Assembly: GCA_017852795.1 (NCBI GenBank)
Contig: JAFMKU010000002.1
Coordinates: forward strand, 9,221 to 73,220
DNA length: 64,000 nucleotides
Direction of reading: 5' to 3'
Source of the DNA: Candidatus Neomicrothrix sp.
GTDB lineage: Bacteria > Actinomycetota > Acidimicrobiia > Acidimicrobiales > Aldehydirespiratoraceae
Numbering within the stretch: position 1 is the stretch's first letter; each line of letters opens with the position of its first letter. Positions 3,866 through 63,509 of this stretch are shown here, in pieces. The position numbers and the translations under genes were made by a program. The notes beneath the pieces were generated by a model. That model was given only the letters and a program-made list of their open reading frames with translations. It did not search any database and had not been told where the DNA came from.

Positions 3866-5347
3866 TTATGCCGGGAGCTGCGTTCTGCGCAGACGATGGC
3901 GCCAGGCCACGGCCAGCACGATGAGAGCCAAAGTGAGCGCCGGCCAGGCACCAAGGGCCACGGCCGGGGTTCGACCGGTTCGGAGCTCAACCGTGTCGTA
4001 GAGCACTGCGGTTTCACTCACCGCGGTTCGTTGCCGGACGGTTCCGTCGGGTTCGATCACCGCGGAGAACCCGGTAGGCGCGGCTTGAAGCACCCACCGT
4101 CCGGTCTCGACCGCCCGCAGTCGGCTGGACGCAATCTGTTGAGTTTGCACAACGGTTAGCCAGTAGCTCGACCCGTTGGTTGGGTTGAGGAGGAGTTGGC
4201 CTCCGTTACCGATCGCATCGCGAGCTCGGTGGTCAAAGAACACTTCCCAAGAGATCGCGACGCCGAGCGGCCCCACTGCGGTGTCAAGCACCGCCGGGGT
4301 GGTGCCGGGTCGCACGTCTCGGGCCGGGAGTAAATTGCTGAACTTCTCGATCAGCGAACGCAGCGGGACGTACTCGCCGAACGGCACCAACCGAACTTTT
4401 TCGTAGCGGTCGGTGATGGTCCCGTCGGGTGATTGTGCGATCGAATAGTTGCTGTTGCTGAGATCGTCGTCGTTTCGCCTGAACCATCCGCTCACCACCA
4501 CCGCGTCGAGGTTTTGGGCCAGTTCGGTGAGTCGGCTGGTGGCTTCGTCGAAGCTGAGAAGTTCCTGTTTGCAGTTGGCCGGTTCAAGAAGCGAGCCTGC
4601 CGCGGGATGGACGACATCTTCGGGCCAGAGCACGAGGTCTACGGGCCGGTCGATGGTTTGTGAGGCGGCCATGTGGCGTTCGAACACGTTGCGGTTCTCG
4701 CAGATTTTGGCCCGAGTGTTTTGTGGGCCACCACCTTGCACGACCGCCACGTCGAGGGTGCCGACCACGGTGGTAGTGGCCAGAGATGCTTGCCCGCTTA
4801 GGGATGCCACCAGCAAGACGGCGGCGATCCCGGCCGCTCGGCGGGCTTGACGTTCTCGCAGATCAGCAACACCCACCCCGGCTAGCCCGACCAGTCCGGC
4901 CAGCAACGGTGACCCGAACAGTCGAGCCGCTTCAGCCCACGGGGTGGACATCCCGATCATGGCGTAGCTGGCGATCGGTGTTCCCCCGAACGGGTAGTTC
5001 CAACGCACCATCTCGATCAGCATCAAGGCGGCAGGAAAGGCGATCCGTTGGGCCCACCGCCGCTCGGGTGGGGTCAACACGCCAACCGCTCCGGCGCACA
5101 GCGAAAACACCAGTACCGCGGCGGGCCATCCGGCGAGGCTGAAATCGGCCATCCAGATCGTGGCGGGCGCCGACCAGCCGAGTCCGACCAGCACCGAGAT
5201 GCGAAAACGGGTTCGGGTGGGTTGCCCGGTGAGCCGGCGGTACCAGATTGCCAGCCCGATCAGGCTGAGCGGCCACCAGCCCCAAGGCGGAAGGCCCGCG
5301 GTGATGAGCAGGCCAGGCCCGATCGAGGCGAGGATCCGTCGAATCAT
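3866..5347 (-). CDS. apolipoprotein N-acyltransferase (Lnt)-like membrane protein, CN-hydrolase domain; nucleophile position reads Ser
   Basis: N-terminal multi-TM region plus a nitrilase-type domain. LVLWPE aligns to E. coli Lnt E267 and YEKVRLVPFGEYVPL to K335. VAISWEVFF aligns to ICYE, where C387 is the nucleophile. A C-terminal TM is present. Start ATG overlaps the cyclase stop (ATGA). Confidence 0.75.
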   Translation of the reverse strand: MIRRILASIGPGLLITAGLPPWGWWPLSLIGLAIWYRRLTGQPTRTRFRISVLVGLGWSAPATIWMADFSLAGWPAAVLVFSLCAGAVGVLTPPERRWAQRIAFPAALMLIEMVRWNYPFGGTPIASYAMIGMSTPWAEAARLFGSPLLAGLVGLAGVGVADLRERQARRAAGIAAVLLVASLSGQASLATTTVVGTLDVAVVQGGGPQNTRAKICENRNVFERHMAASQTIDRPVDLVLWPEDVVHPAAGSLLEPANCKQELLSFDEATSRLTELAQNLDAVVVSGWFRRNDDDLSNSNYSIAQSPDGTITDRYEKVRLVPFGEYVPLRSLIEKFSNLLPARDVRPGTTPAVLDTAVGPLGVAISWEVFFDHRARDAIGNGGQLLLNPTNGSSYWLTVVQTQQIASSRLRAVETGRWVLQAAPTGFSAVIEPDGTVRQRTAVSETAVLYDTVELRTGRTPAVALGAWPALTLALIVLAVAWRHRLRRTQLPA

Positions 5348-54165: not shown

Positions 54166-55716
54166 GTGTACCCAGGTGCTCACGCTGCAACCCGTCCCGA
54201 TCATCCGGCGATCGTCATGGCCGGTTCGGGTGAAACGATCACGTTTGCCGAGTTGGATGAAGAAGCGAACCGGCTGAGCAACCTGTTTCGCGGCATCGGT
54301 CTCGAACCCGGCGATCACGTGGCGTTCTGCTTAGAGAACCATCCTCGGTTTCTCGCGATCTGCTGGGGTGCGCACTACGCGGGGTTGATCTACACCGCGA
54401 TGAGCAGCCGGCTGACCACCGAAGAAATGGCGTACATCATCGAGAATTGTGAGGCGAAGGCGTTCATCACCTCGCCCTACAAGGCCGATCAGGCCGCGGT
54501 GTTGTTGGACCAGATGCCTGACGTGGAACTGCGGTTGATGGTCGATTCGGTGATCGACGGCTACGACAGTTACGAAGATGCGGTGGCGGCTGCGTCGCCG
54601 GACCCGCTACCGGACCGGGTTGCCGGGCGCGACATGCTGTACAGCTCGGGCACCACGGGCCGACCCAAAGGAGTGCTGCCCACGGTGGTTCCGGAGCCGT
54701 TGGAAACCGCCGGGAGTGGAGTTGGCGGGCTCGGGGCGTTGTTGTTCGGGTTCAACGAGAACTCGCGGTATCTGTCACCGGCTCCGCTGTACCACGCAGC
54801 TCCGTTGCGTTTCTGCATGGGGATCCACATGAGTGGCGGCACGGTGGTGGTGATGGAACGGTTCGATCCTGAGGAGTATTTGCAGCTGGTCGAGACCCAT
54901 CAGATCACGGTGTCTCAGGTGGTGCCGACCATGTTTGTGCGGATGCTCAAACTCGATGAGCAGCAGCGCACCCGCTACGACGTGTCCTCGTTGCAGGCCT
55001 GTATCCACGCCGCGGCGCCCTGCCCGGTGGAGGTGAAACACAAGATGATCGACTGGTGGGGTCCGATCATCCATGAGTACTACGCCGGTACTGAAGGCAA
55101 CGGGTTCGTGTACTGCAACAGCGAGCAATGGTTAGCCCATCCGGGAACGGTGGGGGCTGCGGTGCTTGGGGTCATCCATATCTGTGATGACGAAGGTCAA
55201 GAAGTTGCGGTTGGCCAAGAGGGCACCGTCTACTTCGAAAGCGACACGGCGTTTGAGTACCACGGCGACCCAGAAAAGACCGCCGGTTCTCGGTTGGCGA
55301 ACGGTTGGTCCACGCTGGGTGACGTCGGCCGGGTCGATGAGGACGGGTTCTTGTATCTAACCGACCGCAAGGCGTACATGATCATTTCTGGCGGGGTGAA
55401 CATTTACCCGCAGGAAGCGGAGAACGTGCTGACCATGCACCCCAAGGTCGCCGATGTGGCCGTGATCGGGGTTCCCAACGACGACTTCGGTGAGGAGGTC
55501 AAGGGGGTGGTTCAGCCGGTGGAGATGCCCGCCGATGACGCCGCCGCGTCCCGGCTTTCGGCCGAGTTGATCGCCTACTGCAAAGAACACTTGGCCGATG
55601 TCAAGTGCCCCCGCACCATCGATTTCCGGGCCGAGTTGCCTCGTCATCCGACCGGCAAGCTCTACAAGCGTCTACTCAAAGACGAATACTGGGCCGCCTC
55701 AGGTCGTTCGATCTGA
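54166..55716 (+). CDS. AMP-dependent acyl-CoA synthetase/ligase (FadD-like)
   Basis: YSSGTTGRPKGV, YYAGTEG, and a C-terminal GKLYKRLL motif. Confidence 0.9.
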   Translation: MYPGAHAATRPDHPAIVMAGSGETITFAELDEEANRLSNLFRGIGLEPGDHVAFCLENHPRFLAICWGAHYAGLIYTAMSSRLTTEEMAYIIENCEAKAFITSPYKADQAAVLLDQMPDVELRLMVDSVIDGYDSYEDAVAAASPDPLPDRVAGRDMLYSSGTTGRPKGVLPTVVPEPLETAGSGVGGLGALLFGFNENSRYLSPAPLYHAAPLRFCMGIHMSGGTVVVMERFDPEEYLQLVETHQITVSQVVPTMFVRMLKLDEQQRTRYDVSSLQACIHAAAPCPVEVKHKMIDWWGPIIHEYYAGTEGNGFVYCNSEQWLAHPGTVGAAVLGVIHICDDEGQEVAVGQEGTVYFESDTAFEYHGDPEKTAGSRLANGWSTLGDVGRVDEDGFLYLTDRKAYMIISGGVNIYPQEAENVLTMHPKVADVAVIGVPNDDFGEEVKGVVQPVEMPADDAAASRLSAELIAYCKEHLADVKCPRTIDFRAELPRHPTGKLYKRLLKDEYWAASGRSI

Positions 55717-55756
55717 TTAAGGATGGGTGACCGGTTGACAACACCGGCACGGTTCC

Positions 55757-56623
55757 TTAGCCGTCGAGACCAAGCAGTCGAGCCGCGTTGCCGCGCAGGA
55801 ACTTGGGCCAGACGTCGTCGTTGAAGCCGACGTTGGTCATGTCGGTAAAGATCCGTTCCAGCGAAAGCCCCATCGGGAAGTAACCGGCGTACAGGACCTT
55901 GTCGGCACCTCGAGTGTTGGCGTAGTTGATGATCGCCTTGGGGTAATGCTTCGGAGCGAACGCCGACGTTGAGTAATGCAGCCCTGGCCATTTCAGCATC
56001 AACTTCACCATCAGGTTCTCCCACGGCTCGCAGCCATGCCGGGTGACCAGCGTGAGCTCAGGGAAGTCGTACATGACCTGATCAATACGTTCAACGAACT
56101 GGGGGCTCATCGGGAGTCGAGGTCCAGGGACACCAGCGCAGATGAAGATCGGAATGTCGAGCTCACAGCAGGTCGAGTAGATCGGGTAGAACTTCGGGTC
56201 GTCGATCGGCACCTGCGGAACGCATCCGGCTGGGAACGCGCCAACCGCACGAATATCCCATTCTTCTTTTTGGCGGCGGAGTTTGGCGACCTCACCGACC
56301 ACGTCGTTGGGGTCAACGTTGGCGGACGGAATGAACCGTTCCGGGTGTTGACGTAGCGCCCGCTGCGAAAGTTCCCCCTCGCATCCGATCAGTCCGTATT
56401 CGATGCCGAACCGGTCCATTTCTCCAAGGGTGACCGCGATCGGGTCGGAGTCGGTCCCGTAGAGCTCTTTGGGCACGTTTTTGAACATGTACTCAACCGG
56501 AAACTCGAAATCGGTTGACTCGGTGTCTTTGAGTTGGCCCCGGATGAAGTCGTACACCGCGAAGTCAGGTTCGGGGAATCCGATCATGCAGTCGATAGCC
56601 CCGATGTCTTTTGGCATGCCCAT
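55757..56623 (-). CDS. amidohydrolase-2 family protein, paralog B
   Basis: Start ATG 56623 (MGMPKDIGAIDCM, compare MGFPDNIGAIDTM in paralog A). Shared block VERIDQVMYDFPEL..VTRHGCEPWE...KLMLKWPGLHYSTSAF. Confidence 0.75.
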   Translation of the reverse strand: MGMPKDIGAIDCMIGFPEPDFAVYDFIRGQLKDTESTDFEFPVEYMFKNVPKELYGTDSDPIAVTLGEMDRFGIEYGLIGCEGELSQRALRQHPERFIPSANVDPNDVVGEVAKLRRQKEEWDIRAVGAFPAGCVPQVPIDDPKFYPIYSTCCELDIPIFICAGVPGPRLPMSPQFVERIDQVMYDFPELTLVTRHGCEPWENLMVKLMLKWPGLHYSTSAFAPKHYPKAIINYANTRGADKVLYAGYFPMGLSLERIFTDMTNVGFNDDVWPKFLRGNAARLLGLDG

Positions 56624-56685
56624 GGTCTGACCGTAACCGAGGTACGGGCTGTAGGACCAAAACGATGTGCCTCTACAGTGTTGGC

Positions 56686-58464
56686 ATGACTGCTTCCGAC
56701 TTCCGGTTCGACCCGGCAGAACCACCGGCCACCGAGGAAGATTGGCGTGAACTTGTCGATGGGGTGCTCAAGGGGCGCTCGTTCGATTCGGTGTTGGTGT
56801 CGTCAACCGCGGGTGGCCTTTCGATCGACCCGTTGTATGTCCCGGATGGTTCGTCTTCGGTTTCTGGGGTAGCCGACGATCACCGCCTGCGGTTTGGTTG
56901 GGATCTTCGCCAGCAGCACCGTGTCGGTGACCCAGCCGCAGTCTCGGTGGCGGTGCTCGACGATCTCAACGGTGGGGTGACTTCGATTGAGTTGTCGAGC
57001 GAGGAACCGCTCGACGTTTCGGTTTTGGCCGCGTGCCTTGACGGAGTGCTGCTTGATGTGGCGCCGGTTGCGCTTGCTCCTCACACCAACCGAGAGTCGG
57101 CTCACGCCCTGCTTGACTTGTTGGACAACGCCGGCGTTTCGGCCACGGCCGGGGCCTGGTTGGGGCTGGACCCGCTAGGTGAGTTCGCCCGCTCCGGTCA
57201 GCTTGGCGATGTGGACGCCGCCGCTGAGCTTGCGGTCGCGGCTCGGGCCGCAGCCCCGAACGTGGTGGCGTTCACGGTCGATACCTGCCGCTACGCCGAT
57301 GCCGGTGCGAGCGAAGTGGACGAGGTGGCCTGGATGCTGGCGACCGGTGTGGCCTACCTACGGGCCTTGGAATCGGCGGGTTGTTCGGTCGCCGACGCCG
57401 CGGCCACGATCGGGTTCCGCCTGTCAGCCGACGCTGATCAGTTCGTGACCATGGCGCGCCTTCGGGCGGCTCGTCAGCAGTGGTCGGCGGTGCTAACCGC
57501 CTGCGGGGTGGACCCGTCGGTGTCCCGGTTTCAGGCGGTCACGTCGGCTGCCATGTTCAGCCGCTGCAATCCGGCGGTCAACATTTTGCGAGCGACTTCT
57601 GCGACCTTTGCTGCGGGAGTCGCCGGGGTTGATGCGGTGACGGTGCTGCCGTTCGATGGCAGTGCCGACCCGCTCGCTCGACGGGTAGCCCGCAACCTGC
57701 AACACCTGCTGATCGACGAGTCGGGAATCAACCGGCTGGTCGACCCGGCGGGTGGTTCGGCGTTCATCGAGTCGTTGACGGCTCGCATCGCTGACGCGGC
57801 GTGGGCGGCGTTTCAACAAATCGAGTCCACTGGTGGCATGGCTTCGGCACTCACCGATGGCCGGGTCCGGGCTGCGGTGGACGAGGCTTGGAGTCGGGAG
57901 TTCCACGCGGTGGCTACCCGCCGCCAGGTGGTGACTGGCGTCTCGGAGTTCCCCGACCGCGAACCGGTGGGGCCGCATTGGGGGTCACCGGTCGATGCCG
58001 GGTTTCCGCTTCGTCGGCCCGCCGCCGTTTTTGAAGATCTGCGAAACGCGGCGGACACCGCCCGAGCTGTTGGCGCCACGGTGGCGGTGCAGGTTGTTGC
58101 ACTGGGGTCACTCGCTGAGCACACCGCCCGGTCCACTTGGGTGCAGAACCTGTTAGCGGTCGGTGGGATTGATGCGGTCGATAGCGAACACGACGGTGCC
58201 TCGTCGCCGCTGGAAGCCGCCGCTCGATATAGCGCGGGGGGTTTGTCGCTCGCCGTGATCTGTTCCAGCGACGAGGTGTACGACCAGCGAGCCGCAGCGA
58301 CCGCCACCGCGCTGAAACAAGCAGGGGCAACTTGGGTTGCCCTTGCCGGTCGTCGAGCCGACGCCGATGCGTTGCGAGCCGCGGGGGTTGACGCCTTCTG
58401 GCATGTTGGCGTCGACGTGGTGGACGTTTTGACCGATGTGCAACGACGGTTGGGGGTGCGCTGA
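56686..58464 (+). CDS. mutA: methylmalonyl-CoA mutase small (beta) subunit
   Basis: Start ATG 56686. MCM-fold sequence that lacks the DxHxxG B12 motif. Sits immediately upstream of mutB. Confidence 0.8.
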   Translation: MTASDFRFDPAEPPATEEDWRELVDGVLKGRSFDSVLVSSTAGGLSIDPLYVPDGSSSVSGVADDHRLRFGWDLRQQHRVGDPAAVSVAVLDDLNGGVTSIELSSEEPLDVSVLAACLDGVLLDVAPVALAPHTNRESAHALLDLLDNAGVSATAGAWLGLDPLGEFARSGQLGDVDAAAELAVAARAAAPNVVAFTVDTCRYADAGASEVDEVAWMLATGVAYLRALESAGCSVADAAATIGFRLSADADQFVTMARLRAARQQWSAVLTACGVDPSVSRFQAVTSAAMFSRCNPAVNILRATSATFAAGVAGVDAVTVLPFDGSADPLARRVARNLQHLLIDESGINRLVDPAGGSAFIESLTARIADAAWAAFQQIESTGGMASALTDGRVRAAVDEAWSREFHAVATRRQVVTGVSEFPDREPVGPHWGSPVDAGFPLRRPAAVFEDLRNAADTARAVGATVAVQVVALGSLAEHTARSTWVQNLLAVGGIDAVDSEHDGASSPLEAAARYSAGGLSLAVICSSDEVYDQRAAATATALKQAGATWVALAGRRADADALRAAGVDAFWHVGVDVVDVLTDVQRRLGVR

Positions 58465-58631
58465 TGCAAAAGCTGGAACAACTTGGCTGGCTGCTGTTTG
58501 TCGCCGGTTCAGCCGTGTTTGTGGCGGTTGGTGTGGTCAACGGTGATCTGCTCACGTTGACCGGTGGGCTGCTGTATCTGGTTGGTTGTATGGCGTTATT
58601 GAAGTCGTCACAGTTGGGGGGCCAGTCATGA
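58464..58631 (+). CDS. unannotated small membrane protein, 55 aa ([55 protein letters not shown])
   Basis: Its ATG overlaps the mutA stop (ATGA at 58462..58466), and its stop overlaps the mutB ATG (ATGA at 58628..58631). Two hydrophobic helices. Below the ORF-track size cutoff. Confidence 0.5.
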
Positions 58632-60757
58632 GTGCGATTCCGGATTTCTCGACCGTTTCACCGGCACCGGTGCTTGCGGCCAACGCTTCGGAGCTTCCGG
58701 CCTGGTCAACCCCGGAAGGGATCGACGTTCCAGCCTCGTTGGGGTCCTTGGCGGTTCACGACCTGGCGTTCCCGCAGTCGTTTCCGGGGTTACCGCCCTA
58801 CGTGCGGGGCCCGTATCCGACCATGTACGTCAACCAACCGTGGACGATCCGTCAATACGCCGGGTTCTCCACTGCGGAAGCATCGAACGCCTTCTACCGC
58901 CGCAATTTGGCGGCCGGGCAGAAGGGGTTGTCGATCGCGTTCGATCTGGCCACCCACCGCGGGTACGACTCGGACAACCCTCGGGTGACCGGTGATGTGG
59001 GCATGGCCGGTGTGGCAATCGATTCGATCCTGGACATGCGTCAACTGTTCGCGGGGATCCCGTTGGATCAGATGACGGTTTCGATGACCATGAACGGTGC
59101 GGTCCTACCGGTGTTGGCTCTCTACGTGGTGGCCGCTGAGGAGCAGGGGGTGGAGCCCAGTCAGCTGGCCGGCACGATCCAGAACGACATTCTCAAAGAG
59201 TTCATGGTCCGCAACACCTACATCTACCCACCGGCGCCGAGCATGCGGATCATTTCGGACATCTTTGCGTTCACCAGCACCGAGATGCCGCGCTTCAACT
59301 CGATTTCGATCTCTGGCTATCACATGCAGGAAGCGGGAGCGACCGCTGATCTTGAATTGGCCTACACGCTGGCCGACGGGGTGGAGTACGTGCGGGCTGG
59401 GGTTGACGCCGGGCTGGACGTGGACGCGTTCGCGCCGCGGCTGAGTTTCTTTTGGGCGATCGGCATGAACTTCTTCATGGAGGTCGCAAAGCTGCGGGCG
59501 GCCCGGCTCCTGTGGTCACAGTTGATGGCGCAGTTCGGGCCGACCAACCCGAAATCGTCGTCGTTGCGGACCCACAGCCAAACCAGCGGCTGGTCGTTGA
59601 CCGCACAAGACGTGTACAACAACGTCACCCGAACCTGTGTGGAGGCCATGGCCGCGACTCAGGGGCACACCCAGTCGTTGCACACCAACGCGTTGGATGA
59701 GGCGTTGGCGCTTCCGACCGACTACTCGGCGCAGATCGCCCGCAACACGCAACTGTTTTTGCAGCAGGAGAGCGGCACCACCCGCACGGTTGACCCGTGG
59801 GGCGGGAGCTATCACGTCGAGTGGTTGACTCAGCAGTTAGCGGCAAAAGCCTGGGCTCATATCAGCGAGGTTGAGTCGATGGGGGGCATGGCCGCTGCGA
59901 TCGAGGCCGGGATTCCTAAACTTCGGATCGAAGAAGCAGCCGCTCGTACCCAAGCCCGAATCGATTCAGGGCAGCAGGCCGTGATCGGTGTCAACCGGTA
60001 TCGCCTAGACCCAGGGGTGGAAGACCCGATTGAGGTGCTGCGGATCGACAACGCCGAGGTTCGGGCGGCTCAGTTGGCCAAACTCGACCAGCTTCGAGCC
60101 GAGCGCGACAGCGAACGGGTGACGGTGGCCTTGGATGCGTTGACTGCCGCTGCCGAACGCGGTGACGGCAATCTGCTGGCCTTGTCGATCGACGCAGCCC
60201 GAGCCATGGCGACGGTCGGGGAGATCAGCGATGCGCTGGAGAAGGTCTATGGTCGTCATGTTGCGACGATCCGAACAATCGAAGGGGTGTACCGGTCCGA
60301 AGTGGGAAATGATGCGGGTGTTGTAGAAGCGGTTCGGTCCCGGGTTGAGGCGTTTGCCGAGGCGCACGGGCGTCGGCCCAGGATTTTGGTGGCCAAAATG
60401 GGTCAGGACGGTCACGACCGGGGCCAGAAAGTGATCGCAACCGCGTTTGCCGATCTTGGCTTTGATGTGGACATCGGGCCGTTGTTCCAGACGCCAGCCG
60501 AAGTGGCTCGTCAAGCCGTTGAGGCCGATGTGCACGTGGTTGGGGCCTCATCGTTGGCGGCTGGCCATCTGACGCTGGTTCCCGAACTACGAGCCGAGCT
60601 GGCCGCGTTGGGGCGTCCCGACATCAAGATCACCGTGGGTGGAGTGATCCCGCCCGATGACGTTCCGACCTTGCTGGAGTTGGGCGCGGTTGCGGTGTAT
60701 CCGCCGGGAACGGTCATTCCTGAAGCGGCCGCCGAGCTGCTCGACCTGTTGAGCTAA
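58628..60757 (+). CDS. mutB: methylmalonyl-CoA mutase large (alpha) subunit
   Basis: [30 protein letters not shown] and the B12-binding GQDGHDRG motif. Start ATG 58628 (MSAIPDF), not 58586. Confidence 0.93.
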
Positions 60758-60762
60758 TCAAG

Positions 60763-60804
60763 CTGATCCGCCGGAGTATGGCGAGCCGGGCTTTGGCGGA
60801 TCAG
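60763..60804. terminator. long-stem inverted repeat CTGATCCGCC-N22-GGCGGATCAG between convergent mutB and the Dabb gene
   Basis: Perfect 10-bp arms at 60763..60772 and 60795..60804. The 3' arm overlaps the Dabb stop codon. Confidence 0.35.
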
Positions 60805-61091
60805 ATCTGCGTCTGGCAGCGCAACAACTGCGCAGCGTTGGGGGCGATCAGACGGTTGATGATGTCAACGTGGTCTTGGTCGGTGGCGTAAGCCCGATAT
60901 CCGGCAACGTCATCAAACTCGGCGACCACCGCAACATCGGCAGCCCCTTCGGTGATACCGGCGTCCCGTCCGACCTGATAGCTGCGGATGTGTGCACAGG
61001 TCGGGGCGTACGCGGCGAGCTCGGCGACGATCTGGTCGGCGACCGCTTTGGCGTCGTTGTTGAGCACGATAAGGACGTGATGACGGATCAT
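60801..61091 (-). CDS. Dabb (stress-responsive alpha/beta barrel) family protein
   Basis: About 96 aa from ATG 61091 (MIRHHVLIVL...). Typical Dabb N-terminus and a FDDVAGYRAY..H motif. Confidence 0.7.
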   Translation of the reverse strand: MIRHHVLIVLNNDAKAVADQIVAELAAYAPTCAHIRSYQVGRDAGITEGAADVAVVAEFDDVAGYRAYATDQDHVDIINRLIAPNAAQLLRCQTQI

Positions 61092-61118
61092 GGGCCTCAT
61101 CATAGGTAGCGTCAAGGG

Positions 61119-62135
61119 GTGCCATCAGAACTAGCTGCCGGTGTACTTGCCGGTGACCGCACGGCGATTGGTCGGGCGATCACCTTGGTTGAGTCGACCC
61201 ATCCCGATCATCGGGCCGATGCGGCGGCGTTGCTGGACGAACTGCTGCCCCATGCGGGTGCGGCGTTGCGGGTAGGGATCACCGGGGTACCGGGGGTTGG
61301 CAAATCGACGTTCATTGAGGCGTTGGGGTTGATGCTGGTGGAGCGAGGCCACCGGGTAGCAGTCATCGCGGTAGACCCGTCGAGTTCTCGAACCGGTGGT
61401 TCGATTTTGGGTGACAAAACCCGGATGGCCCGCCTGTCGGTGTCCCCTTCGGCCTTTATCCGCCCATCCCCGTCGGCCGGGAGTCTCGGTGGAGTTGCCC
61501 GGGCAACTCGCGAGGCGATGATCGTGTTGGAAGCAGCCGGGTATGACCGGGTGCTGGTCGAGACGGTCGGGGTTGGCCAGAGCGAAACCGTCGTTCACGG
61601 CATGGTCGATGTGTTTTTGGTGTTGATGCTTTCCGGGGCCGGCGACGAGTTGCAGGGCATCAAGAAAGGTGTGTTGGAGCTCGCCGATGTGGTGGCGGTC
61701 AACAAAGCCGACGGGTCGAACCGGGAGCGAGCCCAGCAGGCCGCCTTGGACTATCAGCGGGCCCTGCATCTGGTTCAACCCCCCGACGCCGCTTGGGAAC
61801 CTCCGGTACTGACCTGTTCTTCGCTGGAAGGTTCCGGGCTGCCAGAATTGTGGGCTGAGATCGAACGCCACCAGGCGGTGATGGTGGCCAACGGTGGTCG
61901 AGACGCCCGTCGGCAGGCCCAACAGTTGAGCTGGATGCGGACCATGTTGCAGGAACGCCTGCTGGCCCGGATGGACGCGGATCCGGTGTTTGCTGCCGCA
62001 CGCGCCAAAGCGGAGGCGGCGGTGATGTCCGGGGTCAGCACCCCGGCGGTAGCTGTTGACCGTCTGCTGGAATCCCGAGATTTTGGTTTCATCTCCGGTC
62101 TTGCTGACCAAGGCGAAGCTTCTGACCCCAACTGA
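61119..62135 (+). CDS. meaB: methylmalonyl-CoA mutase-associated GTPase
   Basis: GVPGVGKST P-loop, ETVGVGQSE, VNKAD. GTG start. Confidence 0.9.
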   Translation: MPSELAAGVLAGDRTAIGRAITLVESTHPDHRADAAALLDELLPHAGAALRVGITGVPGVGKSTFIEALGLMLVERGHRVAVIAVDPSSSRTGGSILGDKTRMARLSVSPSAFIRPSPSAGSLGGVARATREAMIVLEAAGYDRVLVETVGVGQSETVVHGMVDVFLVLMLSGAGDELQGIKKGVLELADVVAVNKADGSNRERAQQAALDYQRALHLVQPPDAAWEPPVLTCSSLEGSGLPELWAEIERHQAVMVANGGRDARRQAQQLSWMRTMLQERLLARMDADPVFAAARAKAEAAVMSGVSTPAVAVDRLLESRDFGFISGLADQGEASDPN

Positions 62136-62198
62136 AATAGGAACCGGCAGGCACCTGATCTAGGGTTGGGCCCGCAGGAAGAGAGTGAGGAGTCGGAT

Positions 62199-63509
62199 AT
62201 GGCTTTTGATGTCGATCTTTGGGATTTCGATGCGTTCCAACGCCAGGAGCATCACGACATGCTGGCCCAGTTCCGTGAGACCGATCCCGGTATCCACTGG
62301 TATGACGAAGGTGACAAAGGCCCTGGCTTCTGGGTGATTACTCGCCTCGCTCACCTCAAAGAGGTGAACCGTCAACCTGATGTGTTCTCGTCGAACAAGG
62401 GCGGCACGCAGATGGCTGAGATGGACCGTGAGAGCGGCACCACCTCGGCGATCAACGACGGAATCATGTTGGAGATGGATCCGCCGAAGCACACCCGGTA
62501 CCGCCGGATCGTGTCCCGTGGGTTCACTCCCCGAATGATCGCGCTGCTTGAGGATTACCTTGAGAACCGCACCGACATGATCATCGACAAGGTGTGTGAG
62601 CGGGGCACCGCCGAGTTCGTCACCGAACTGTCGGCCGAGTTGCCGTTGCAGGCCATCGCCGAGATGGTCGGTATCCCGCTCGAAGACCGATCCAAGATCT
62701 TCGACTGGACCAACGCCATGATCGGCTCCAACGATCCGGATTTCATCAACGATCCCGATCAGGTGATGCACGCTTCGGCCGAGTTGTTCATGTACAGCCG
62801 AGAGCTTCAGACCGAGCGACGTGACAAACCCGCCGACGACATCATCACCACCTTGCTGTCAGCCGATGTGGACGGTTCGGCCCTCACCGAAGACGAGTTC
62901 GACATGTTCTTCCTGCTGCTTTGCGTAGCTGGGAACGAGACGACCCGTAACTCGATCACCCACGGCATGAAGGGCTTCTTTGATTTCCCCGAGCAGTGGG
63001 AGAAGTACCGCAGCGACCCGGCCCGTTACGAAGACACCATGGTCGACGAGGTAGTTCGGTGGGCCACACCGGTGTTGAACTTCCGTCGCCAGGCCATGCA
63101 GGACTACGACCTCGACGGGGTGAAGATCAAAGAAGGCGACAAAGTCGTGATGTGGCACATCGCCGCTAACCGCGACCCACGGGCCTTTACCGATCCGTGG
63201 GTGTTCGACATTGAGCGCACCCCGAACGACCACGTCGGGTTCGGTGGTGGTGGCCCGCATTTCTGTCTCGGCGCCAACCTGGCTCGCATGGAGATCCGGA
63301 TGATGTTCCGGGAGATCGCCAAACGGCTTCCCGACATTCGTCTCGATGGTGAGGTTCGGTACCTCCGTTCCAACTTCATCGGGGGCATCAAGGAGATGCC
63401 GGTGGCGTTCTCGCCGACCGTTTCGCTGGAAACAACCCCGATGGATCGGCTCGGTTCGGCGGCTGGCGCGTCGGGTACGACCGGCTTCGGTGGCCGGGTT
63501 GACCGCTAG
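62199..63509 (+). CDS. cytochrome P450
   Basis: Start ATG 62199 after SD GAGGAG. I-helix AGNETT, ExxR, and heme loop FGGGGPHFCLGANLAR. Confidence 0.9.
   Translation: MAFDVDLWDFDAFQRQEHHDMLAQFRETDPGIHWYDEGDKGPGFWVITRLAHLKEVNRQPDVFSSNKGGTQMAEMDRESGTTSAINDGIMLEMDPPKHTRYRRIVSRGFTPRMIALLEDYLENRTDMIIDKVCERGTAEFVTELSAELPLQAIAEMVGIPLEDRSKIFDWTNAMIGSNDPDFINDPDQVMHASAELFMYSRELQTERRDKPADDIITTLLSADVDGSALTEDEFDMFFLLLCVAGNETTRNSITHGMKGFFDFPEQWEKYRSDPARYEDTMVDEVVRWATPVLNFRRQAMQDYDLDGVKIKEGDKVVMWHIAANRDPRAFTDPWVFDIERTPNDHVGFGGGGPHFCLGANLARMEIRMMFREIAKRLPDIRLDGEVRYLRSNFIGGIKEMPVAFSPTVSLETTPMDRLGSAAGASGTTGFGGRVDR

Follow-up and report, generated by a model that had tools for sequence, protein, structure and literature searches.

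Methylmalonyl-CoA mutase (MCM) is among the best-studied vitamin B12-dependent enzymes. In the canonical actinobacterial operon, as in Streptomyces and Mycobacterium, the gene of its small subunit, mutA, precedes that of the large subunit, mutB, with the chaperone gene meaB nearby, and at many loci the mutA stop codon overlaps the mutB start codon (ATGA, -4 nt). The known helpers of MCM, MeaB and an adenosyltransferase, are to our knowledge all soluble. Tiny hydrophobic proteins which are encoded in the operon of a partner, often with overlapping codons, and are made together with it are familiar from other systems, such as KdpF in KdpFABC and CydX in cytochrome bd. The subject of the present work is a small open reading frame (sORF) of 55 codons plus stop which occupies the spacer between mutA and mutB at positions 58464..58631 (+) of a 64,000-nucleotide stretch of contig JAFMKU010000002.1 from Candidatus Neomicrothrix sp.; this whole stretch is called the window in the following. 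The locus has the same order of mutA and mutB as the canonical operon, meaB close by and probable coupling by overlapping codons, but a third gene is spliced in and both overlaps are rebuilt around it. The sORF product can be classed with the microproteins encoded inside operons, but its operon is that of a soluble B12 enzyme; KdpF and CydX have one helix and partners in membrane complexes, whereas two helices are predicted for the sORF product. No sequence similarity to KdpF or CydX was found. The searchable literature yielded no description of MCM operons that include a small membrane protein; one co-occurrence of the search terms concerned mctC and not MCM.

That a single frame fills the spacer had been claimed in a first-pass annotation made from the sequence, and the frame found here has a translation identical to the one given there; the length of the spacer, put at 165 nt, had to be corrected to 163 nt from the mutA stop to the mutB ATG. 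At the 5' junction (gcgcTGATGcaa) the mutA stop TGA (58462-58464) and the sORF ATG (58464-58466) have one nucleotide in common, forming TGATG (58462..58466, +) rather than the ATGA which had been read there. At the other end the mutB ATG (58628-58630) does overlap the sORF stop TGA (58629-58631) as ATGA (58628..58631, +). With both neighbours the sORF has overlapping stop and start codons on the same strand, the arrangement taken as the mark of translational coupling, and the earlier suggestion that its position suits such coupling was borne out. TGATG occurs in every mutA-linked ortholog examined (L091, L100-L107, L114, L116, L117) and also in two loci, L096 and L115, where a short-chain dehydrogenase (SDR) gene adjoins the sORF. 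The ATGA overlap of sORF and mutB is kept in eight of the ten orthologous loci listed, L095 and L115 being the exceptions. Both starts are preceded by G-rich runs which were called Shine-Dalgarno-like by resemblance to the consensus only. The first, GGGGG (58452..58456, +), lies 7 nt 5' of the sORF ATG within the last mutA codons (..RLGVR and stop), and the orthologous loci have ctgggggt, ctggggct or ctggaggt at the equivalent spot. The second, GGGGGG (58616..58621, +), lies 6 nt 5' of the mutB ATG, in the codons for the variable C-terminal end of the sORF product. A G-rich run stands 6-12 nt before the mutB ATG in nine of ten orthologous loci examined, in the forms GAGGGGAG, GGAG, GGGAGAG, GGGGGG, GGGAG or GGTGGA; in L100 a clear purine run before mutB was not found. 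From this layout it appears quite probable that the sORF is translationally coupled to its neighbours.

In 8.5 kb of GC-rich DNA around the locus 74 open reading frames (ORFs) of at least 40 amino acids (aa) are present, most of them spurious and in impossible frames. As chance ORFs of this size are common in GC-rich DNA the sORF is not significant by itself, and it is raised above chance by its conservation in relatives. A word-indexed single-sequence protein search with the peptide returned only the identical peptide, which is found on more than 20 near-identical metagenome contigs with unchanged gene order. The loci L001-L010, at least 99.4% identical and showing one synonymous CAA>CAG change, are uninformative on selection because they are near-identical and had been picked by exact protein match. 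An exhaustive phmmer search against 1.84 billion representatives (cutoff E<=1e-3) gave 47 matches, all but one (P0003, 2996 aa) being small proteins, aligned over residues ~2-48. The nearest match, P0002, has 55 aa and is 57% identical, and its contig carries mutA, a 55-codon ORF and the mutB start, joined by TGATG and ATGA as in the window. MutA of this locus is 59% identical to that of the window, and the sORF DNA is 55% identical with zero indels; 21 codons have synonymous differences only and 24 non-synonymous ones, and the differences fall on codon positions 1, 2 and 3 in the numbers 22, 16 and 37. A metagenome scan together with a profile search gave 36 ortholog clusters, nearly all of exactly 55 aa, in which G8, W9, F12, G15, G23, G34, G35, L37 and G41 are invariant. 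Across the mutA-linked lineages examined, where MutA is 52-59% identical to that of the window, no indels are found in the sORF.

Selection was estimated by the pairwise Nei-Gojobori method on eight 55-codon orthologs (28 pairs). The mean proportion of non-synonymous differences (pN) was 0.268 and that of synonymous differences (pS) 0.605, with pN<pS in all 28 pairs and mean pairwise differences of 0.32, 0.25 and 0.50 at the three codon positions. The signature of purifying selection is confined to the frame of the sORF, the other two frames of the same DNA giving pN>=pS and stop codons. With a pN of 0.211 for MutA and 0.080 for MutB, the constraint on the sORF is comparable to that on MutA and weaker than that on MutB. 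On these grounds the sequence at 58464-58631 is almost certainly a real protein-coding gene under purifying selection, as the first-pass annotation had guessed with some doubt. Its doubt had come from third codon positions richer in T than those of the neighbours, which they are (0.24 versus a mean of 0.16), but 12% of the 55-codon windows in neighbouring genes are equally T-rich. The G+C content at third positions (GC3) is 0.64 versus 0.76 in the neighbours, at the 9th percentile of such windows. The T-richness was rejected as an argument against coding, since it lies within the range of the neighbouring genes. The gene had also been described as hidden, which does not apply, public gene callers already calling a hypothetical protein there.

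The structure of the product was predicted with AlphaFold2, using the alignment of its family as input. The model has helices at residues 3-26 and 29-51 with a mean predicted local distance difference test score (pLDDT) of 89.2, and the 19-residue hydropathy runs from 1.1 to 2.35 across residues 2-50 with its peak at 2.35, in accordance with the two hydrophobic helices which had been proposed from the translation. Helix 1 (58470..58541, +) has its hydrophobic core at about residues 7-25 and contains the invariant G8, W9, F12, G15 and G23. The turn N26-G27-D28 (58539..58547, +), with a nearly invariant aspartate, is predicted to lie on the outer side of the membrane, and helix 2 (58548..58616, +) carries the invariant G34, G35, L37 and G41 and the nearly invariant C42, A44 and L45. 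With their small-residue motifs both helices are predicted to be suited to packing or oligomerisation. Variation within the protein is greatest in the C-terminal tail. Within the clade of mutB-linked orthologs the loop has on average 0.08 Lys and Arg against 1.14 Asp and Glu, the ends having ~1.1 Lys and Arg each; in the wider family each end has 3.2 Lys and Arg, so that the bias is strong there and weak in the clade. By the positive-inside rule these counts suggest a topology with both termini in the cytoplasm (N-in/C-in). The two helices can be aligned in register (window 58482-58604, GxxLFxxG[SC]xxF; hhalign probability 79%, E 1.7e-5), which suggests that the hairpin is an internal repeat derived from duplication of one helix. 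At codons 29-30 (58548-58553) the window has Leu-Leu where most orthologs have Trp-Trp (Trp30 in at least 90%), and its protein is the most divergent among the mutA-linked copies.

A profile built from 45 members recovered at least 1077 clusters at E<=1e-3, with members of 50-130 aa and the motif GWxLF..GD..GGxLF..GC. The window protein carries the family residues G8, W9, F12, D28 and G34; at position 38 it has the Tyr of most of the mutB-linked clade, and at least 90% of the family have Phe. Judged by this motif and by its sequence similarity to independent members across both helices, the sORF product is a member of a large family of small, putatively two-helix membrane proteins. Public names for the members are 'hypothetical protein' or inconsistent guesses, and no curated family in Pfam or NCBIfam is matched by the window protein above cutoff, NCBIfam giving no match even at E<=1. 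Searches of the PDB by sequence were non-significant (best E 0.099, a SemiSWEET), and searches by fold gave generic helical hairpins, all with E>0.6. The closest described family is that of the YrhK-like proteins (PF14145), named after Bacillus subtilis YrhK, whose function is unknown; these are likewise small and hydrophobic, with a two-helix unit bearing small-residue and Phe motifs. Weak matches to PF14145 come from 20 of the 45 family members (best E 1.5e-5). The window protein reaches 17.8 bits (E 0.0029), below the gathering cutoff of 26.1, and is a non-member by the Pfam criterion; only its helix 1 is aligned, to the second half of the model. The accessible portions of the literature mentioning YrhK draw no link to MCM. 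The C-terminal region of the Rv1678 family (NF049986) is weakly matched by 16 of the 45 members (best E 6.9e-7), which suggests a hairpin module common to this family and that of the sORF. Rv1678-type proteins are larger and multi-pass, however, and the window protein itself has no match to NF049986.

Three members of the search output deserve a remark of their own. The 2996-aa protein P0003 has four hairpin-like stretches (E 2e-8) and no Pfam domain, so that the hairpin unit may also occur as a repeat in large proteins. The other two are artefacts: P0020 (195 aa) has an sORF-like N-terminus followed by out-of-frame sequence and then the N-terminus of MutB, a join which indicates a frameshift or misassembly, and P0017 (49 aa) ends in LSLIHISEPTRP, which resembles translated sequencing adapter.

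Members of 51-55 aa which lie directly 5' of mutB on the same strand form a group of their own, into which the 55-aa window protein fits. Of the residues specific to this clade (S16, V18, F19, W30, C42, A44, L45) the window protein has six out of seven, W30 being replaced by Leu (D-L-L versus D-W-W). With a profile of the clade, its members score 62 bits or more and the rest of the family 40 bits or less. By these sequence features the mutB-linked clade is a distinct subfamily with conserved residues of its own (DWW, GCxALL). Its carriers are uncultured marine and estuarine Acidimicrobiia-like Actinomycetota; the public labels of the relatives are Actinomycetota metagenome-assembled genomes and, in one case, Candidatus Aldehydirespiratoraceae (Acidimicrobiales).

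Gene contexts were read in about ten diverged lineages. The order mutA-sORF-mutB with both overlaps is found in the window and in L091, L100-L107, L114, L116 and L117. In L096-L099, L108 and L095 the order is SDR-sORF-mutB with no mutA upstream; the subclade of L096-L099 and L108 has a 53-aa form of the protein, with the SDR gene upstream and the ATGA overlap with mutB retained. Because of this subclade the conserved link is to mutB and not to the mutA-mutB junction. The genes 3' of mutB vary as well, Dabb and meaB being found in some loci and PAD_porph in others. Among the neighbours read, then, it is only the sORF that is never missing from beside mutB, apart from L115, where an insert splits the pair. 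The pairing is kept near synonymous saturation, which is the classical argument for a functional link. Two variations in the SDR-linked loci may be added. In L097 and L098 (~3948-3950) the dehydrogenase gene has a TAC>TAG nonsense change relative to L096 and L099, which cuts its product from 244 aa to 227 aa and abolishes the TGATG junction with the sORF. In L115 the gene upstream of the sORF is likewise an SDR gene and not mutA.

The other side of the comparison was formed by mutB loci of species-representative genomes, 80 of them among the matches listed, a set which does not define the taxonomic limits of the clade. Of the 75 listed loci with an upstream mutA, 34 have the mutA stop at -10..+8 nt from the MutB start, which agrees with the statement in the first-pass annotation that actinobacterial mutA and mutB usually adjoin or overlap. 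Its view that the arrangement in the window is unusual against that of other Actinomycetota also held, no relative of the peptide being present in the 80 listed loci. In some Alphaproteobacteria other genes lie between mutA and mutB, in gaps of 390-1670 nt: a GFA-family gene (PF04828), an opposite-strand gene for a DUF817 membrane protein, or the BioY component of a biotin transporter (PF02632). Such gap genes were seen in L036, L051, L053 and L066 (~2490-2960), in L030, L071 and L080, and in L032 (1664-2236). These insertions resemble the sORF in lying at the mutA-mutB junction and in encoding, in part, membrane proteins, but they are larger, unrelated in sequence, variable from genus to genus and not all codon-overlapping.

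From these data a mechanism can be proposed in steps of decreasing firmness. The sORF, whose coding nature is supported by selection, would give rise to a small protein of the inner membrane, insertion being predicted, in the form of a helical hairpin with cytoplasmic termini (N-in/C-in) and a short N-G-D turn directed outward. Both codon overlaps (TGATG and ATGA), together with the G-rich Shine-Dalgarno-like run inside each preceding gene, point to a chain of termination and reinitiation from mutA through the sORF to mutB, in which the variable tail of the sORF would double as the ribosome-binding site of mutB and the output of microprotein would keep a roughly constant ratio to that of the mutase subunits. 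Selection may then maintain its co-production with MutB, a step suggested by the conserved gene pair. The most likely role, a speculative one, would be that of an accessory partner or tether which keeps or arranges some of the mutase system (MutB, perhaps together with MeaB) on the cytoplasmic side of the membrane; these last steps are the weakest of the series. In its full form this proposal states that in a clade of marine Acidimicrobiia MCM has acquired a dedicated third component, a two-helix membrane microprotein stoichiometric with MutB, which docks at the cytoplasmic membrane either the mutase or the cofactor-loading cycle in which MeaB assists it, close, for instance, to cobalamin import or to membrane-bound steps of lipid or propionate catabolism. 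So specific a version has to be regarded as doubtful. The broader claim that the sORF is functionally tied to MCM in some way is better placed, on the evidence of gene pairing, at slightly short of an even chance.

Several readings dispense with a function of the peptide in MCM, and those which also dispense with the gene can be dealt with quickly. Were the spacer non-coding, its frame would be open by chance over intergenic DNA or a structured regulatory RNA such as a cobalamin-responsive element. The frequency of chance ORFs and the somewhat low GC3 speak for this, but the frame stays open at exactly 55 codons at ~55% nucleotide identity with change biased to third positions, and homologous proteins exist elsewhere, which makes the idea very improbable. 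Rfam covariance models gave no match at E<=1 on either strand of 58200-58900, the cobalamin riboswitch included, the RNA fold energy of the spacer is ordinary (z -1.03), and a scan for promoters and terminators showed no promoter-like and no plus-strand terminator-like site inside the operon. Even more remote is a start of MutB at the TTG at 58586, which lies in frame upstream of the mutB ATG, would extend the ORF to 723 aa and would take the 3' third of the region; it had been raised in the first-pass annotation against its own proposal. The mutB frame upstream of the ATG is unconserved and contains a stop in L106, the start MS[SANV]IP is conserved in the clade, and MutB homologs in the 80 listed loci align from ATG 58628 (query residue 1 to 4 in many), so that the start at 58586 was rejected. 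Even combined, the non-coding and the extended-mutB readings are left with hardly any probability. Improbable too, if to a lesser degree, is a leader peptide or coupling spacer, in which translation as such hands ribosomes on from mutA to mutB or adjusts the ratio of MutA to MutB and the peptide itself is functionless. It would explain why both junctions are conserved overlaps, why the Shine-Dalgarno-like run of mutB lies in the tail of the ORF and why this tail varies most. It does not sit well with pN<pS in every pair and nine invariant residues spread over both helices, with homology to stand-alone genes of a large family, with the retention of the sORF where mutA is not upstream, or with the habit of most other Actinomycetota of joining mutA to mutB by a 4-nt overlap without any spacer.

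The serious competitor, named in the first-pass annotation beside a tethering or modulating role, is a passenger gene, that is a real small membrane protein unrelated to the mutase, perhaps serving some general membrane function common to its whole family, which landed 5' of mutB in the ancestor of the clade and was retained because the overlapping codons and the embedded ribosome-binding site of mutB hinder its removal, co-expression being tolerated or incidentally useful. This has a substantial though less than even chance and is nearly as likely as a partnership with MutB, and the observations in its favour are largely those which weigh against the partnership. In the 80 listed mutB loci of other species, other Acidimicrobiia among them, neither tblastn nor a profile search found a family member within 3 kb, so the mutase does not need the sORF protein generally and the arrangement is confined to one clade, a fairly narrow one with MutB 83-87% identical. 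MCM is a soluble enzyme, and we know of no studied organism in which it needs such a membrane protein. Four sampled distant members of the wider family (L093, L110, L111/L112, L113) stand alone in unrelated neighbourhoods, so the basic function of the family is not specific to MCM. The unrelated insertions in Alphaproteobacteria (GFA, DUF817, BioY) imply that the mutA-mutB junction can accept passengers. The pair itself is not inseparable: L095 has SDR-sORF, a gap of ~50 nt and then mutB, the overlap being lost, and in L115 a 437-aa gene stands between mutB and a 51-aa sORF which is intact in spite of the split. This inserted ORF (518-1831, -) lies on the opposite strand of a low-coverage long-read contig, has no Pfam match and is possibly a mobile element. 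Genes with so tight an overlap do not easily come apart, moreover, and adjacency may in part be inertia within one clade, while the window copy lacks the near-invariant W30 (L29 L30 instead of WW) and has a slightly low GC3. Against a passenger it can be held that the sORF-mutB pair has outlasted changes on both sides, between mutA and SDR before it and between Dabb/meaB and PAD_porph after it, that it is kept at divergences with synonymous sites near saturation, and that the clade has become a distinct subfamily (DWW, GCxALL; at least 62 versus at most 40 bits).

The neighbouring genes of the window are in keeping with an MCM operon. The mutA gene (56665..58464, +; PF01642 E 9e-78, TIGR00642) encodes the small (beta) subunit; the start at 56665 (599 aa) is that of public gene callers on identical contigs, other possible starts being 56611 (TTG) and 56686 (ATG, 592 aa). 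The mutB gene (58628..60757, +; PF01642 E 3e-228, PF02310, NF006944 with 1258.8 bits), whose start is conserved, encodes the 709-aa large (alpha) subunit, which includes the B12-binding domain. A gene for a Dabb (stress-responsive A/B barrel) protein (60801..61091, -; PF07876) follows and is found 3' of mutB in many but not all orthologous loci, being absent there in L114 and L117. The gene of the MCM G-protein chaperone, meaB, lies at 61119..62135 (+; PF03308 E 2e-116). MutA, MutB and MeaB match families of soluble enzymes, with no membrane-protein family above cutoff. Window positions 54166-63509 and the distant ortholog locus L116 agree in their wider gene order: acyl-CoA synthetase, Amidohydro_2 (-), mutA, sORF, mutB, Dabb (-), meaB and a P450, the last standing directly after meaB in the window and after two citrate synthase genes in L116. 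This common order hints at a conserved catabolic island.

Even as a passenger the sORF would be of interest. It is a well-supported real ORF of less than 60 aa, it represents a family of at least 1077 clusters with a sharp motif and no curated model which is worth naming, and it shows cleanly how a gene can enter a junction of translationally coupled genes and have the coupling restored on either side. Should it indeed dock the mutase at the membrane, no earlier example of a membrane-anchoring subunit would be on record for an adenosylcobalamin-dependent isomerase, and the finding would suggest that abundant uncultured marine actinobacteria organise the mutase, or the delivery of its cofactor, in space.

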